64,000 nucleotides of DNA from a virus, in the IMG/VR virus record IMGVR_UViG_3300042301_003932. One strand, given 5' to 3'. Positions 25,559 to 33,468 of the stretch are shown here, piece after piece. Position 1 is the stretch's first letter; each line of letters opens with the position of its first letter. Under the pieces are notes generated by a model, which did no database searches, was not told the origin of the DNA, and saw only the letters and a program-made list of their open reading frames with translations. Both the position numbers and the translations under genes were made by a program.

Positions 25559-27559
25559 TTATCTTACTTGACCTTTTTCTACTGAGATTTTTGACTTATC
25601 TTTGATAATTGTCATGACTCTATTTTTTAATTCTTGAGTAAATGCCCTATCTTTCATAAGAGCATCGGATAAGGTTCCACTAGTATTGACATTAATGTTT
25701 ATATTTATGTCTCCTGATGCTTCAATTTTTTGAGTTGACTCAGTTTTAATACTTGAAGGTGCGGATGACATTTGTTTAATATTATCTAAACTTCTATTAC
25801 CCTCAAAATTATTTTTAATTTTAAATGAATCCTCATATGTTTTTTTGAGGATGTCTAAGTTTTTTAATAAGTTTGGTGCAAATACTGCCTCATCTTCTTT
25901 AATAAAATTAAACATTTCACCTTTACCTAAACTTAAAACTTTATTTCCTGTTGAAAAAGCAGCATCATCTTCTTTTTGAGCACCCCCTTGTGCCGAACCT
26001 TTACCGGAGTTTGAACCTCCGCTTCCTCCGCTTCCTCCGCTTGATCCGCTATTAGAAGATGAAGACACACCTCTGTTTATTTTATCTTTTCCTATATTTC
26101 TTTCTTCTGTTTTTTTTTCTCCCTCTTCTTGAGCCGATATTTTTCCACCATCTTTAGACCCCTCTTTAAATCTTTCAGTAACATTTTTTACACCTTCACG
26201 AGCAATATCCGCAGCTTGATTTACACCTTCTTTAACGTTTCCTCCTACAATATCAATACCACTACGAAATTGATCTATAATTGTTTGTCTTTGTTTGTCT
26301 CCAAGTTGTGTTAAAAGAGTGTCTCGTATTACACGAGCGTCTGCATTAAGTTGTTCTTGAAGAGTTAAACCTTGTACCGCCAAATCTTTATCAGAAAGAG
26401 CCGCCTTTTTTTGATAATCTTCAAGAGCCGCCTGAATTTTAGCGGGACTTTTTTCCATTTCAGTTGCCAAATCATCCGTTTTCAAACCAGGAATATCTAT
26501 TGACATTTTTCCACCTTTAAATTCGGTAAGTGACGCTAATAAATCTTTTTGGTCTTTTGGTATGTCGGCAAGTCCAGTACCTGACATTTCACTCATCACT
26601 TGTTTAGCCTTAAACGCCTCTCTACCTATTTTAGTCATTTTATCTAAAGTGGTTCCCATGGCCTCTGCTTGAGCTTTTAATCTCTGTCTAGATAAAGGAT
26701 CAATTTCAATTTCGCCAGTTTTTTCATTTACTTTGTATGCACTTGCGGCCAAATCAATCATTTGATTCTGTAAAGCCTCAACATCATTCATACCCATGTT
26801 CATTAGTTTAAAAGGATCCCCTAAAGATCCAATTGATCCTCCTAACATTTGCATATTGGCTGCGGTTTCTATCGCCTTTTCAGGATCCCACAAATCAACA
26901 GATTTAGAAAGTGCACCAATTTCATCAACACTTGTTCTAAGTTGTTTAGCTTGAATTGCCATTTTAGTTAGTCCCTCAAGTCCACTTTTAAAACCATAAC
27001 TATCAATTTTAGTTATAGATCCTTTAATTTCTTCCAAAAGTTTTCCACTATCAACCCCAGACATACGAGCAGTTTTTGCTAATTTTTGCATAGTTTCAAT
27101 ACTTTTTATTTGAGATCCTTCAAGTCTCATAAATTCAGCAACCATACCACCCAAACTTTCAGATGCGAGTCCTGTCGTTTTAGACATGCCAACTAAACTT
27201 TCGGCAAATGTTTCACCAAATTGTGTAGTATCAGAAGTCATGAAGACAATTTTTTCCATTCCTTTTGAAAACCCTTGTACTGAATTAGTAATGTCTTCAA
27301 AAGTTCCTCCCATTTTTAGGACTTCATTATATGATTTGAAAAGTTGTTCTCTGAAGTTTGATGATTCAAAAACCATCCCACTGGACATAGTTCTTTGTAA
27401 AGACCTTGCCTTGTCCTCCATTTCGGTTAAGCCCCTCATTGTGGTAGCAGGATCTTGTAGTTTGTCTAAGGCACCACCTATGGTGTCAAAAATTTCTTTA
27501 ATTGTCTGTCCCTTAGCATCCCACTCAGTATTAGGTCCTGTTGATAACAACCACATCAT
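25559..27559 (-). CDS. Tape measure protein (putative)
   Basis: Helical, Ala/Met/Gly-rich protein directly downstream of tube and chaperone genes. Confidence 0.7.
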   Translation of the reverse strand: MMWLLSTGPNTEWDAKGQTIKEIFDTIGGALDKLQDPATTMRGLTEMEDKARSLQRTMSSGMVFESSNFREQLFKSYNEVLKMGGTFEDITNSVQGFSKGMEKIVFMTSDTTQFGETFAESLVGMSKTTGLASESLGGMVAEFMRLEGSQIKSIETMQKLAKTARMSGVDSGKLLEEIKGSITKIDSYGFKSGLEGLTKMAIQAKQLRTSVDEIGALSKSVDLWDPEKAIETAANMQMLGGSIGSLGDPFKLMNMGMNDVEALQNQMIDLAASAYKVNEKTGEIEIDPLSRQRLKAQAEAMGTTLDKMTKIGREAFKAKQVMSEMSGTGLADIPKDQKDLLASLTEFKGGKMSIDIPGLKTDDLATEMEKSPAKIQAALEDYQKKAALSDKDLAVQGLTLQEQLNADARVIRDTLLTQLGDKQRQTIIDQFRSGIDIVGGNVKEGVNQAADIAREGVKNVTERFKEGSKDGGKISAQEEGEKKTEERNIGKDKINRGVSSSSNSGSSGGSGGSGGSNSGKGSAQGGAQKEDDAAFSTGNKVLSLGKGEMFNFIKEDEAVFAPNLLKNLDILKKTYEDSFKIKNNFEGNRSLDNIKQMSSAPSSIKTESTQKIEASGDINININVNTSGTLSDALMKDRAFTQELKNRVMTIIKDKSKISVEKGQVR

Positions 27560-27580: not shown

Positions 27581-27743
27581 TTAGTCGTCATTTTTTTCGT
27601 ATTCTTTATATAGTTTGTCAATAAAGAATTTTCTTTCATAAACAGGCATTGACATTAAATCGGAATAAGAAAAATTTCCGTATTTTACTAAATAATATAT
27701 TTCGTCTAATAAATAAAGTTTGAAATTAGAAGAAAGGGCGAAA
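27581..27743 (-). CDS. gp51-like / chaperone C-terminal extension, probably reached by a +1 frameshift
   Basis: LLDEIYYLVKYGNFSYSDLMSMPVYERKFFIDKL resembles gpT/gp51-type domains; no ATG precedes this core; overlaps the upstream gene in the +1 frame. Confidence 0.7.
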
Positions 27744-28478
27744 AAATTCCACCCCAAAAGCAATATCAACTATTACTTCTTCTCCAGACGGGGCGATAAC
27801 TTTTCTTTGTAAATCCATTTTAGGTTCACATATGTTTATGAATTTTCTAAGTTCTTTAGAATCTGAAATAGGCATATTATTGATGAATGTAGCAATAACT
27901 CCTTTATCTCTACTTCCATCTAATTCAACAATTTGTGTTTCCAATCTTTTTGTTATAACAGGTACAATCATACCTTTAGGGTAATTCTCTAATAATGAAT
28001 CAATTTTTTTCTCTTCTCCAAGATTCATTAATTTGAATTTTACAATCTTTTGTGATTTGGGTAAAGTATAAGTAAATAAACCTTCACTATCCGGAGTATT
28101 TTCCATAGGTATATAAGATACCTCATCTAAAATGACTGTCACATCAAAAAATTTATCTGTTCTTGGGTCTCTTACACTTATATTATATTCAGGACCAAAT
28201 GCGGTATTTCTTAAAAATAAAAGTATTGCTTGAACATCAACGGTTATTAACTGATCAATGTTAAATCCAGGTTCATAAATTTTATTTTTTAATAGAGTAT
28301 TAACAATACCATCTTTAGAACTATTTTGTGACATTAATAAGTTTTCATCACTTGCCGTTAAATATCCTACTTTAACTGATTCTTTTTTTGGTGTATAAAA
28401 AATTCCTTTAGAAGGTAATTTTACCACGTCATGTGGTAGATTAAAATTCATTTGACCATATTCTGCAGCGTTATCCAT
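27726..28478 (-). CDS. Tail/baseplate hub assembly chaperone (T4 gp26-like)
   Basis: VKLPSKGIFY, YLTASDENLL, DVQAILLFLRNTAFGPEY, C-terminal FFRP; lies between tube and tape measure. Confidence 0.8.
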   Translation of the reverse strand: MDNAAEYGQMNFNLPHDVVKLPSKGIFYTPKKESVKVGYLTASDENLLMSQNSSKDGIVNTLLKNKIYEPGFNIDQLITVDVQAILLFLRNTAFGPEYNISVRDPRTDKFFDVTVILDEVSYIPMENTPDSEGLFTYTLPKSQKIVKFKLMNLGEEKKIDSLLENYPKGMIVPVITKRLETQIVELDGSRDKGVIATFINNMPISDSKELRKFINICEPKMDLQRKVIAPSGEEVIVDIAFGVEFFRPFF

Positions 28479-28523: not shown

Positions 28524-28551
28524 AAAAAAACCCACCTATTAAAGATGGGTT
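28524..28551 (-). terminator. Intrinsic terminator after the tail tube gene
   Basis: AACCCATCT-TTAAT-AGGTGGGTT followed by a T-run. Confidence 0.7.
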
Positions 28552-28572
28552 CAATATTATAAAATTAATTTT

Positions 28573-29061
28573 TTAGTAAACTAATATACATCTATCAGGT
28601 TGTAAGGTCATATCAACCATAGCTAAATCATCACCACCGTAACCTAAATCTCCAAATGACGCTTTAGTTATTAAACATCCTTGTAGAATCCATTTTTCAA
28701 CTGCAACTCCCGTTGGGTCTAACATTTCTAAATCAACATCTTTTTTGTACCCCGCAGCATAACCCATACGACCTGTTACTGATTCTGCATGTAAACGAAC
28801 CCATTCCATAACTGCTTGAGATGCAGAAGGTCCGATTGGGTCTCTTAATTTTACAGTAATCTCACCCCATTTGAATGATCCTGATACGTATGTTTCAGTG
28901 TTTAAGAATTTAATTTCTTTTTTTCCAATATCTATTGATGGTCTTGACGCACTTTCAACATACCATGAATTGATACCCAAAGAAGAAGGAAATGTCATAA
29001 TAAACCTATTTTTTCTTTTAGGTTCATACTGAAAAGGCATTTTCATTAATAAATCAGCCAT
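28573..29061 (-). CDS. Tail tube protein (T4 gp19-like)
   Basis: YEPKRKNRF...RPS...W..ITVKLRD...YKKDVDLEMLDPTG..VEKW.L.G...FGDL; 162 aa; close to the sheath gene. Confidence 0.9.
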   Translation of the reverse strand: MADLLMKMPFQYEPKRKNRFIMTFPSSLGINSWYVESASRPSIDIGKKEIKFLNTETYVSGSFKWGEITVKLRDPIGPSASQAVMEWVRLHAESVTGRMGYAAGYKKDVDLEMLDPTGVAVEKWILQGCLITKASFGDLGYGGDDLAMVDMTLQPDRCILVY

Positions 29062-30246: not shown

Positions 30247-33200
30247 TTATACATCGTCAAAAGACGCTCCTGTTGGTGTAATTACAAATTCAATATCAAT
30301 GTATTCTAACGCCCTTGTAGGTTTCAAGAAAATTTTACCTGTTAACGTATTAGAATCTAAATCTTCAGGAGTGTTTGAAACGGTAACTCTAAAGTCAATC
30401 AAACCTCTATCTCTTCTTATTGAATCTAAAATTGGGTTGACTGAGTCTAGGAACTGTTGTCTTACTTTATCATCGTTTTGTTCAAACAATAATCTAACGG
30501 CTACAGCTGAAATCAATTTACGTGCTTGTAATAACAATCTCCTTACGTTGATTCTATCAAGTGCAGATTCTCTAACTTGTAATGTTTTATTACCCCAAAT
30601 TACTGTACCAACGTCTGAGAATGTTGCGATTGGGTTAACTCTACCTTTATAAAGAGTGTCTCTATCTTCTTGAGTTAATTTTTTACGTGCTCTAATCGCG
30701 TTAACTAAACCTCTTGTGTAACCTGCAGATGCAAACCAAGGGAATGCAATGTTATCAGTTAACGCCAAGTTTTTAGTAACCTCAGCTGTTGGTGGGATAT
30801 AAATCTGTGTATTATTTACCGTGTCTCTCGTTAATACCCATGGATAGTATGTTGCAGTGTAGTTAGAATCTATACCTGTGTTTTCTAGTCTATCAACAAT
30901 CTCTTGTGGATAAACTAATCCCTCTTCAATATCTTGATAAGATGGTAATAATAAGTTAAAGTCAGGTGTTGTACAAATATAGATTGAGTCTGCTCTATCT
31001 GTTTCAACCATATCAATCGCATCTTCAACTAAATTTGAGTTGTAGTAATAATCAATACCCGGTGTTACAAATATGTTAATATTAACAGATTCAGGATTTG
31101 CAAAAGTTGCTTGACCCCATTTGTATGCGTAGTAGTCAGTATTTGCCCAAGTCTCTTGGTTAGGTCCTGAAATTTGTTTGAATGCTCCCCATCCTGATGC
31201 GGTTGGGAAAGTTACTGAAGATGCTGCTCCGTATTTAAATCCTGATTGACCTAATGCGAATGTATCACCATTTGTTCTATATTCTCTATAAATGTCCCAT
31301 CCATCAAAACCACCATAAGCCAATACTGTAAATTTACGAGTATTCAATCTAAAATATGGATTATCTGAATCTTCAGGTTCACTATTAAATGAACCGGCAC
31401 CCACTTCAAACGCTTGTGTGTATGCTGAGGTTGCTGGATTGTATATTGTAACTACCGTCGCTCCACTATCCATATGGAAACCTTTAGTAATATAACCCCA
31501 ATCAATACCTTCAGTATCAGTCGCTAAGTTAGCAGGAATTTGTTTACCTTTGTATTCAAAGAAATCGTAATCAATTCCAGTGATATTTGAAATACCTAAG
31601 TAAGCCTTTCTTGGGTTTTCTCCATTTGAGATAACTGGGTTATCACCACCCGATGAAGATCCAAAAGGTGGGTTGTAAATAACTTCACCAGCTTGTAAAT
31701 ATTTTGTTTTATAAATAACAAATGGTGGTGTTGATTGTGCATATTCTCTAGAAATATAACCTTCAAAACCACAAGCGACTGCGTCTGTCGGTGCCTCCTC
31801 ACTCATATCTAACATTACATATTTAGACCTCACTTCATACTCACCGTTAGATGTACCAATTTTATTTGCTACGTAGTTGTTTTGACTAGGATCCATTGAA
31901 CAATTAGTAAAACTTTCAACTACTCTTACATTTTGATCATTATCATAGAAATCTCTAATGAACACATCAAAAGTTCTATTTGAGAAAGAAATGTTTCCAA
32001 TAGACATTTTAACTAATCTATTTGCCGCGTTACCATCAGAAATAAGTTTGAATTTAAATAATTTATAAACTTTATTACCTCTTAATTCTGAAACAATATA
32101 TGGAGTTTCAGGTGTTTGATATTGTTCTAAATAGAACGCTATTGAATCGCTATAGTCTTGAATATTAGAATCGTCGGTAACACCAGGTAGCGCAATTAAT
32201 GAATTGTAGATACCTCTAATTTTTCCGTTTCTATAACCATTTAATAATAAACTTGAATAAACCTCTTCAATAAATAAAGGCACTTCGTTTCTATCTTTAC
32301 CAAAATTACTTCTACCGAATACTTTGGAAATATATTGTGAATCTGTTGTTGAAAGCGAGGTTTCAAAGGTGAACGTTTCAGCATCACTAGTAATACCAGA
32401 AATTACAAAAGTTTCAAATGGATTAAGAGCAACTCCTGAGTATGCTCCTGTTGTGATAATATTAACTCCTGTTGTTGCACTAACCTCAAAATCAGGACCG
32501 TGTTGTGTACTAGAGTAATTTGTAACACCTCTAGATCTCAATGTTGCAACAACTAAATCATCGTATTCACTATAAGGAGTACCTGAATAAACAGTACCGT
32601 AAATTGCAACAGACCCTGAGTATCCTGAAGTCACTGTTGAGATTGAATTTAATGATGCCCCAAAACCATAACCATTATAACTACCGATACTTGATGATTT
32701 AGAATAATCAAATAATGCGTAGTACCAAGGATCATTTAAATAAGAACTTAAATTGTTATTTGCAAAAATAACATCATCAACACCAAACGTTTCAGTATAT
32801 GCGGTTGTGTTGTACGGTGCTCCTGTAACCGCATTAAATGTTGCATCATTAACAGACCCCCAAAAATAAGAGGTTTTACCAGACAATGGTGATGCGATTG
32901 AAAATAAACCAACTTGTGCTGAAATATAATTTTGGAAATCTAAATAAAGACTTGAACTACCCCCATTTGCTGTTGTATATTGATTATAAAAATCGGCAGA
33001 TATTAATGATGGTAGTGAAGGTAATATTGTAATATTTGTACTAGCCCCTGTTGTTCCTGTAAAATATACATAACCTACCGGTGTTGGTGATGAACCTGAT
33101 ACACCAATAGTTGAACTATCAATATTACCGATAGTAACAATTGACCAAGACGGTCCAGCGTCATAACCTGAAAGACCTAATATTCTTGTAACAAATAATT

Positions 33201-33468
33201 GATTTGATTGTTGTAAATATGATTTTGCAATATAAGAAGTTTCATATTTAGGGATTTGTGTGTTTACGAATTTCTCTGGACTTGTTCCACCGAAATAAAC
33301 TTGATACTCGTCAAAGTTAGTGATAAATATAGGTTCAAATGCTGGTCCCTGTAAGGTCTCACCAACTAAACCTAATGTTGTTACACCAACACTTTGAGCG
33401 ACGAAAGTTAAGTCTCTTTCTGAGGTATAAACACCTGGAGAAACGAATACTTTTGTACTAGATGCCAT
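30247..33468 (-). CDS. Tail sheath protein (T4 gp18-like) with large outer insertions
   Basis: FVSPGVYTSERD, YTATYYPW, PWFASAGYTRG, DTLYKGRVNPI, WGNKTLQ, LDRINVRRLL and KPTRALEYIDIEF. Confidence 0.95.
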   Translation of the reverse strand: MASSTKVFVSPGVYTSERDLTFVAQSVGVTTLGLVGETLQGPAFEPIFITNFDEYQVYFGGTSPEKFVNTQIPKYETSYIAKSYLQQSNQLFVTRILGLSGYDAGPSWSIVTIGNIDSSTIGVSGSSPTPVGYVYFTGTTGASTNITILPSLPSLISADFYNQYTTANGGSSSLYLDFQNYISAQVGLFSIASPLSGKTSYFWGSVNDATFNAVTGAPYNTTAYTETFGVDDVIFANNNLSSYLNDPWYYALFDYSKSSSIGSYNGYGFGASLNSISTVTSGYSGSVAIYGTVYSGTPYSEYDDLVVATLRSRGVTNYSSTQHGPDFEVSATTGVNIITTGAYSGVALNPFETFVISGITSDAETFTFETSLSTTDSQYISKVFGRSNFGKDRNEVPLFIEEVYSSLLLNGYRNGKIRGIYNSLIALPGVTDDSNIQDYSDSIAFYLEQYQTPETPYIVSELRGNKVYKLFKFKLISDGNAANRLVKMSIGNISFSNRTFDVFIRDFYDNDQNVRVVESFTNCSMDPSQNNYVANKIGTSNGEYEVRSKYVMLDMSEEAPTDAVACGFEGYISREYAQSTPPFVIYKTKYLQAGEVIYNPPFGSSSGGDNPVISNGENPRKAYLGISNITGIDYDFFEYKGKQIPANLATDTEGIDWGYITKGFHMDSGATVVTIYNPATSAYTQAFEVGAGSFNSEPEDSDNPYFRLNTRKFTVLAYGGFDGWDIYREYRTNGDTFALGQSGFKYGAASSVTFPTASGWGAFKQISGPNQETWANTDYYAYKWGQATFANPESVNINIFVTPGIDYYYNSNLVEDAIDMVETDRADSIYICTTPDFNLLLPSYQDIEEGLVYPQEIVDRLENTGIDSNYTATYYPWVLTRDTVNNTQIYIPPTAEVTKNLALTDNIAFPWFASAGYTRGLVNAIRARKKLTQEDRDTLYKGRVNPIATFSDVGTVIWGNKTLQVRESALDRINVRRLLLQARKLISAVAVRLLFEQNDDKVRQQFLDSVNPILDSIRRDRGLIDFRVTVSNTPEDLDSNTLTGKIFLKPTRALEYIDIEFVITPTGASFDDV

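Follow-up and report, generated by a model that had tools for sequence, protein, structure and literature searches.

The window analysed here is the whole stretch of 64,000 nucleotides (nt) taken from the IMG/VR virus record IMGVR_UViG_3300042301_003932, which represents an uncultured giant phage. It contains a run of genes on the minus strand in the order sheath, tail tube, open reading frame 1 (ORF1), small ORF, a gene for a 666-amino-acid (aa) protein and a gene for a 1957-aa protein (Table 1). Our subject is the overlap of ORF1, whose product resembles gp26 of phage T4, with the small ORF, the two being likely connected by a programmed +1 ribosomal frameshift. ORF1 ends with GTG GAA TTT TTT CGC CCT TTC TTC TAA. 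The small ORF is offset from it by 145 nt and, as 145 mod 3 equals 1, is in the +1 frame. Taking TTTC as a single step gives a stop-free product of 298 aa, reading ...GVEFF-ALSSNFKLYLLDEIYY... across the junction. The first-pass annotation of this DNA had proposed such a slip, and the ORF1 end and coordinates that it gave proved correct.

Table 1. Features of the ORF1/small ORF region in the window
Feature	Position	Strand	Remarks
Sheath gene	30247-33468	minus	
Tail tube gene, gp19-like	28573-29061	minus	directly upstream of ORF1; phrog_4542, E 1.9e-28
ORF1, gp26-like hub/tail assembly chaperone (putative)	27726-28478	minus	250 aa; ends GVEFFRPFF*
Conserved 5' hairpin	27750-27795	minus	
TAG shutting the +1 frame upstream of the overlap	27770-27772	minus	
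Small ORF	27581-27769	minus	62 codons; +1 frame relative to ORF1
Predicted shift site TTT TTT CGC	27738-27746	minus	E-site UUU, P-site UUU, A-site rare CGC
T6 run	27746-27741	minus	
CGC codon	27740-27738	minus	
+1-frame extension	27581-27739	minus	52 codons (ALSSNFKLYLLDEIYYLVKYGNFSYSDLMSMPVYERKFFIDKLYKEYEKNDD) plus stop; similar to the gp51 C-terminus
Dual-coding stretch CCT TTC TTC TAA	27726-27737	minus	PFF* in the 0 frame, L-S-S-N in the +1 frame
666-aa gene	25559-27559	minus	at the tape-measure position; assigned by position and size only

We compared the locus with 80 related loci from viral metagenome contigs of many samples, with 52-91% aa identity. All 80 carry a homologue of the small ORF that overlaps ORF1 in the +1 frame, and the similarity reaches into the overlap. 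Among 46 distinct sequences of the site, TTTTTTCG is invariant and belongs to a wider invariant string, TTT GGG G .. GA. TTTTTTCG. CCTTTCTT. In-frame TTT_TTT_C occurs only once among the long ORFs of the window, namely at this site.

The Arg codon that follows the run is conserved in an unusual manner. Based on the 37 long ORFs of the window (18,371 codons), AGA and AGG make up 86% of the Arg codons and AGA alone 75%. CGC is found five times, i.e. 0.27 per 1000 codons and 0.8% of Arg codons, CGG also has a frequency of 0.27 per 1000, and CGT reaches 3.3 per 1000 (10% of Arg), these values referring to phage codon usage. At Arg-247 the third base of CGN varies, with C in 9, G in 22, T in 14 and A in 1 of the 46 sequences. 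AGA or AGG is present in none of them, yet CGG to AGG and CGA to AGA are each a single synonymous change. Some relatives encode their own tRNA-Arg(ACG). The first-pass annotation had noted the rarity of CGC and expected homologues to keep both TTT_CGN and the +1 frame, not to use AGA at this Arg and to have no independent start for the downstream ORF. The comparison agrees on the codons and the frame, and, as described below, no conserved start was found either.

Synonymous positions around the site are frozen as well. In 39 distinct full-length relatives, none of the 52 degenerate codons for invariant residues in codons 1-228 is fixed to a single codon, their mean codon entropy being about 1 bit, versus 8 of 12 in codons 229-250 (CCG230, GGA232, TTT241, GGG242, TTT245, TTT246, CCT248 and TTC249). 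Conservation of the site thus exceeds chance. The CCT and TTC codons of the dual-coding stretch are identical in all 39 relatives, TTC representing only 13% of Phe codons.

The pattern of variation also locates the predicted shift. Upstream of the U6 run, changes are mild in the 0 frame, with GTN or GCN coding for V or A and GAA, GAG or GAC coding for E or D; in the +1 frame the same changes would specify W, L, S, R or a stop. On the 3' side of CGN both frames are frozen, as PFF in the 0 frame and LSS in the +1 frame. Since only the 0 frame is kept upstream and both are kept downstream, the shift can be placed at the U6 run. Beyond the ORF1 stop, the codon-position entropies in the +1 frame (0.89, 0.61 and 1.24 for positions 1, 2 and 3) show coding periodicity. 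We considered the GGG_G sequence as an alternative slip site and rejected it: the L064 clade has a +1-frame TAG right behind it, and the stretch from GGGG to U6 shows no conservation in the +1 frame.

Immediately 5' of the site lies a hairpin that the first-pass annotation did not mention, and which is conserved and covarying. Its outer stem pairs positions 27789-27795 with 27750-27756 (CGCCCCG/UGGGGUG), the CCCCG/UGGGG part being invariant. The inner stem of 9 bp pairs 27771-27779 with 27757-27765 around a loop at 27766-27770, and its sequence varies by clade with the pairing maintained. Between the two stems, a 9-nt bulge (27780-27788, UCNGGAGAA) shows no variation, even at the synonymous sites of GGA and GAA; an additional contact between RNA segments may lie behind this, or just a preference at the protein and codon level. 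The 3' edge of the hairpin is 3 nt before the U6 run, and a fold of 46 nt is found in every relative. For the window, RNAfold gives -17.5 kcal/mol with a z-score of -3.3. In an alignment of 30 sequences, 88.8% of the cells are paired, versus 36-60% in slid-partner controls; none of 500 shuffles matched the pairing or the covariation score, and compensatory double changes occur at 6 pairs. The stems contain codons that are rare in this 31% G+C genome (GCC, 9% of Ala; CCG, 8% of Pro; GGG, 10% of Gly), and these rare codons are fixed among the relatives. Since GGG is fixed even where the +1 frame of a clade is closed, its freezing does not result from dual coding.

By analogy with designed systems, this hairpin probably promotes forward slippage by refolding behind the ribosome. 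On 70S ribosomes, hairpins designed to lie just upstream of a shift site enhance +1 frameshifting and weaken -1 frameshifting, and they mimic prfB's internal Shine-Dalgarno (SD) motif (PMC6321510). Alternatively, the G-run of the 3' strand might act in an SD-like manner. On the 3' side of the site no conserved stimulatory structure was seen, the downstream folds being weak and differing between relatives. Another hairpin that spans the site and encloses U6 (27755-27735, GGGGUGGAA/UUUCGCCCU) was dismissed as incidental, its CGN pairing in about half of the relatives. As a side observation, the bulge UCNGGAGAA has a GGAG core, and the invariant UUUCUUC right behind the site (3' side) is complementary to the bulge over 7 bp, with G-U pairs counted.

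To the locus and its relatives can be added six distant phages with the same gene order, which are approximately 25-33% identical in ORF1. All six carry, at the same FF position, a +1-frame extension that is homologous to that of the window. Their sites read GAA UUC UUU CGU in Streptococcus phage GXN1, GAG UUC UUU CGU in Bacillus phage HSE3, AGC UUU CUU UGG in Flavobacterium phage immuto, AAC UUU CUA in the huge phage LR756508, AAC UUU UUU UGG in Microcystis phage Mel-JY01 and GAG UUU UUU AGU in Listeria phage LIS04. The U6 run is absent from GXN1, HSE3, immuto and LR756508, which all contain UUU_C, and Mel-JY01 contains UUU_U. GXN1 and HSE3 carry the exact UUU_CGU of influenza PA-X, whose site is UCC_UUU_CGU (PMC5009743). 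None of the six public records annotates a joined gene: the extension is a separate small ORF or is left unannotated, as a 230-nt gap in LIS04. Among close relatives of the window we found no longer protein with a natural in-frame fusion of the extension, which is weak evidence.

The ORF1 product belongs with the hub proteins of T4-like phages. It matches phrog_150 ('baseplate hub') with an E value of 3e-14 over residues 12-247, and PF12322 (T4_baseplate) with an E value of 2.7e-5 and 24.4 bits, just below the cut-off of 24.5. An AlphaFold2 model built on 24 relatives (pLDDT 83) retrieved baseplate hub subunits and hub assembly proteins of many myoviruses from BFVD using Foldseek, with E values from 5.5e-16 (SP-15 baseplate hub subunit, TM 0.76) to 1e-13 ('baseplate hub assembly protein, T4-like'). 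Among solved structures, Foldseek on the PDB gave no match and a profile search no relatives. In a wide search with VIA, the top three rows, for ORF1 residues ~128-226, were 3fgx, an uncharacterized protein of Geobacillus (Z 5.5), 3klu, the prophage protein YqbN (Z 5.3), and 2ob9, the tail assembly chaperone of HK97 (Z 4.8); unrelated rows had Z values of at most 3.1, and all scores are below the safe level of the tool. With YqbN and the HK97 protein being tail assembly chaperones, these weak scores are suggestive of such a fold.

PF12322 covers residues 1-206 of the 208 of T4 gp26 (E 8.8e-64) and residues 1-201 of the 249 of T4 gp51 (E 3.9e-52), and since both proteins match this family they are paralogues. 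The first-pass annotation was right that they are separate genes, which are divergently transcribed, and missed this relationship. In addition to the shared domain, gp51 has a C-terminal tail of about 48 residues. phrog_634 ('baseplate hub assembly catalyst') covers residues 147-246 of T4 gp51 together with small 'gp51' ORFs of cyanophages, the cyanophage gp51 matching it at 1.8e-18. The extension of the window has no direct match to phrog_634, and it aligns with cyanophage gp51 in hhalign with an E value of 1.4e-7 and a probability of 94%. These profile comparisons point to homology of the extension with cyanophage gp51 and, via the latter, with the C-terminus of T4 gp51. The predicted frameshift product would therefore be built like gp51, and the product made without a shift like gp26. 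Leiman et al. (2010, PMC3004832) list T4 gp26 and gp51 among the chaperones of hub assembly.

The cyanophages S-CREM1 (L004:2940-3174) and S-H38 (L003:2970-3204) offer a related arrangement. Their gp26 ends in ..GSFFE* (AGT TTT TTC GAA TAG), with a canonical U_UUU_UUC heptamer at the same FF position, and no stop interrupts the small 'gp51' ORF, read in the -1 frame, anywhere in the overlap. The annotated starts of this ORF, TTG or a late ATG, remove conserved residues. These two phages probably use an unannotated -1 frameshift.

Of the neighbouring genes, the 666-aa gene has no family match and no pairwise similarity to the tape measure of immuto or to T4 gp29. In immuto, LIS04 and HSE3 the gene order is the same and the tape measure is annotated at this position. 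The gene may code for the tape measure on grounds of position and size only. The interval that separates ORF1 from the tube gene contains, at 28528-28552 (minus strand), a hairpin that resembles a terminator and has a T-run behind it; it could lower expression of the chaperone relative to the tube.

We propose the following mechanism. Most ribosomes would reach the ORF1 stop and produce the 250-aa chaperone. A minority would stall because the very rare CGC is slow to be decoded in the A site, at a point where tRNA-Phe occupies the second UUU of GAA_UUU_UUU_CGC. The tRNA-Phe would then re-pair one base forward, from UUU to UUC, GCC would be read next in the +1 frame, and 52 residues would be added to give the 298-aa long form (...GVEFF-ALSSNFK...). 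The hairpin, 3 nt before the U6 run, would refold behind the ribosome and help the forward slip. The short and long forms would correspond to T4 gp26 and gp51, and the pair would be the functional counterpart of the lambda G/GT chaperones beside the tape measure. The comparison of homologues supports the P-site slip and the EFF-ALSSNFK fusion as the first-pass annotation had drawn them. Its view of the site as a PA-X-type signal working on bacterial ribosomes stands as regards the site; the principle is not new, UUU_Ynn being known as +1-prone on bacterial ribosomes (Atkins et al. 2016, PMC5009743).

A phage-encoded tRNA reading UUUC as four bases was considered in addition and rejected as a general requirement. 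In the tRNA clusters of relatives, the tRNA-Phe genes have ordinary anticodon loops of 7 nt; a 99%-complete relative (G001) has no tRNA-Phe and keeps the site; and no tRNA genes were found in the window. Two tRNA-like genes with a two-base 'anticodon' and a 6-nt loop according to ARAGORN, the loop of the first being UUUUUA, are present in the tRNA cluster of one relative, at L096:1389-1462 and L096:1945-2030 (contig of L047). A tRNA-Phe at L091:351-427 has a long D region and a normal 7-nt anticodon loop.

Several observations weigh against the +1 slip as we propose it. About a third of the relatives use CGT, which at 10% of Arg codons is not extremely rare. With the second UUU in the P site, the 3' strand of the hairpin would be inside the ribosome, so that its role is a model; and the upstream folds of the distant phages are not significant by z-score, some of these hairpins ending 3-6 nt before the site. 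When the extension is compared with T4 gp51 directly by profile, it gives a weak match to residues 219-245, with an E value of 0.057. In LIS04, U6 is followed by A, and re-pairing from UUU to UUA would be poor; a slip on the second UUU seems to suit this site less well than a -2 slip, or than a +1 slip from the first UUU. Lastly, the invariant U6 run would equally permit a -2 slip. In such an event, tRNA-Phe would move back two bases with perfect re-pairing on U6 before UUC and GCC are read, and the junction would contain three Phe (EFFF-ALSS) in place of the two of the expected +1 junction peptide, GVEFFALSSNFK (tryptic form VIAPSGEEVIVDIAFGVEFFALSSNFK; the short form would yield VIAPSGEEVIVDIAFGVEFFR). 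A -2 shift has a precedent in the G/GT pair of phage Mu (Xu et al. 2004, as cited in PMC5009743), and the U6 run, found in 46 of 46 distinct sequences, is more than a slip on UUU_C alone requires. The four distant phages devoid of U6 nevertheless reach the same frame. Since -2 re-pairing would be mismatched in them and UUU to UUC re-pairs, the comparison favours +1. The invariant C behind U6 suits +1 re-pairing, and a hairpin on the upstream side reportedly hinders slippage backward and helps it forward (PMC6321510). We regard a -2 shift as unlikely, and keep it as a live rival for the clades that carry U6.

Independent translation of the small ORF, from a TTG in the overlap (e.g. within TTT GGG) or by reinitiation after the ORF1 stop, is another reading, and annotators of cyanophages do treat the homologous small ORF as a separate gene. 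As the first-pass annotation had observed, the window has no ATG ahead of the core of the extension, the first being M39 in an MSMP motif. A TTG six codons ahead of the junction is present in nearly all loci; however, it arises automatically from the conserved Phe-Gly (TTT GGG), and the GC-rich stem includes it in its 3' strand. A TAG comes right after it in the L064/L073 clade, three codons ahead of the junction, and the next ATG, GTG or TTG is only at codon +27, past more than half of the conserved extension, so that independent initiation fails there. Furthermore, the first TTG of the window (27769) is replaced by TGA in the 90% identical L007 and by TTA in L005, and the +1 frame upstream of U6 is not conserved as protein. 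An independent start is thus very unlikely. Programmed transcriptional slippage usually takes place on runs of about 8-9 residues or more. Loss of one U or gain of two on the T6 run would generate fusion mRNAs, and an invariant homopolymer exactly at the junction is what slippage would call for; but T6 is short, the distant relatives have only T3, and the fixed C, the CGN codon and the hairpin would be left unexplained, which makes this explanation highly improbable. Homopolymers are also error-prone in sequencing, and a decaying gene could look similar. However, 80 contigs, which come from many samples, agree in T6 and in both frames, and the two frames are under selection, as seen from the synonymous CGN variation in RPFF-stop and the +1 coding periodicity; an artefact is hardly credible.

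If the +1 frameshift reading is correct, it bears on what is considered one of the most conserved recoding events of phages. The G-T frameshift of tail assembly chaperones is conserved among long-tailed phages 'except T4' (Atkins et al. 2016 review, PMC5009743). Our analyses suggest that the T4-type chaperones would follow the same short-form/long-form logic, that T4 keeps this logic with recoding replaced by gene duplication, and that the direction of the shift changed between lineages, from +1 here to -1 in cyanophages. It is possible, though we put it forward tentatively, that T4-like phages have their missing G/GT pair in gp26 and gp51, that the ancestor of the two was a single frameshifted gene (with a +1 shift here as well as in several phages of the Firmicute, Flavobacterium and Microcystis groups, and a -1 shift in cyanophages) which T4 resolved into two, and that the refolding 5' hairpin is a natural stimulator in the +1 lineage. 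In the literature searched, we found no published link of gp26/gp51, cyanophage gp51 or the baseplate hub with frameshifting. Upstream refolding stimulators have so far been shown with designed hairpins only. For the recoding field, the locus would be a candidate for a +1 site of the UUU_CGN type that occurs naturally, is deeply conserved, is used by bacterial ribosomes and has a covarying hairpin on its 5' side, all within a segment short enough for direct work with reporters. As to annotation, the predicted long form is missed in all public records examined, six with the +1 and two cyanophage records with the -1 arrangement.

Among known systems, gpG/gpGT of phage lambda has the same layout and likewise directly precedes the gene for the tape measure (Xu, Hendrix and Duda 2004, as summarised in PMC5009743). 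The two have in common a short 0-frame product, a trans-frame extension and an overlapping ORF without its own start. In contrast, lambda shifts by -1 at an X_XXY_YYZ heptamer, and the site proposed here is +1 at UUU_UUU_CGN with a putative stimulator on its 5' side; a -1 shift does not fit the loci, as all 80 have the extension in the +1 frame and the -1 frame closes within about 12 codons of the site. Furthermore, ORF1 is twice the size of gpG and has no sequence similarity to it. The T4 proteins gp26 (208 aa) and gp51 (249 aa) are of the same family as ORF1 and provide the same outcome of a short and a long form. Unlike in T4, where two separate genes encode them, one gene would generate both forms here by predicted recoding, and it is placed between the tube gene and the gene at the tape-measure position, which is not so in T4. 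In T4-like cyanophages, both modules are homologous to those of the window and a U6C run occupies the same FF position, whereas their extension follows in the -1 frame and has been annotated as a gene of its own.

With respect to the slip itself, influenza PA-X, E. coli UUU_Y and Yersinia YopN-TyeA (PMC5009743) share with the proposed site a P-site UUU followed by C, so that tRNA-Phe can re-pair with UUC, and a rare CGN in the A site. The site differs from that of PA-X by its E-site codon, UUU instead of UCC, by its structured 5' element, and by its occurrence in a bacterial virus and in a virion-assembly gene. Finally, the +1 P-site slip of prfB (RF2) at CUU_UGA is aided by a duplex just 5' of the site, as we propose for the hairpin. 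The GGGG(U) of the hairpin 3' strand is SD-like, resembling the internal SD sequence of prfB, and immuto has CUU_U at its site. In prfB, a stop codon occupies the A site and the SD sequence is 3 nt upstream; neither is found here, with a sense CGN in the A site and the G-run 8 nt before the P-site codon. In addition, the duplex of the phage locus is intramolecular, and it would operate without the autoregulatory logic of prfB.

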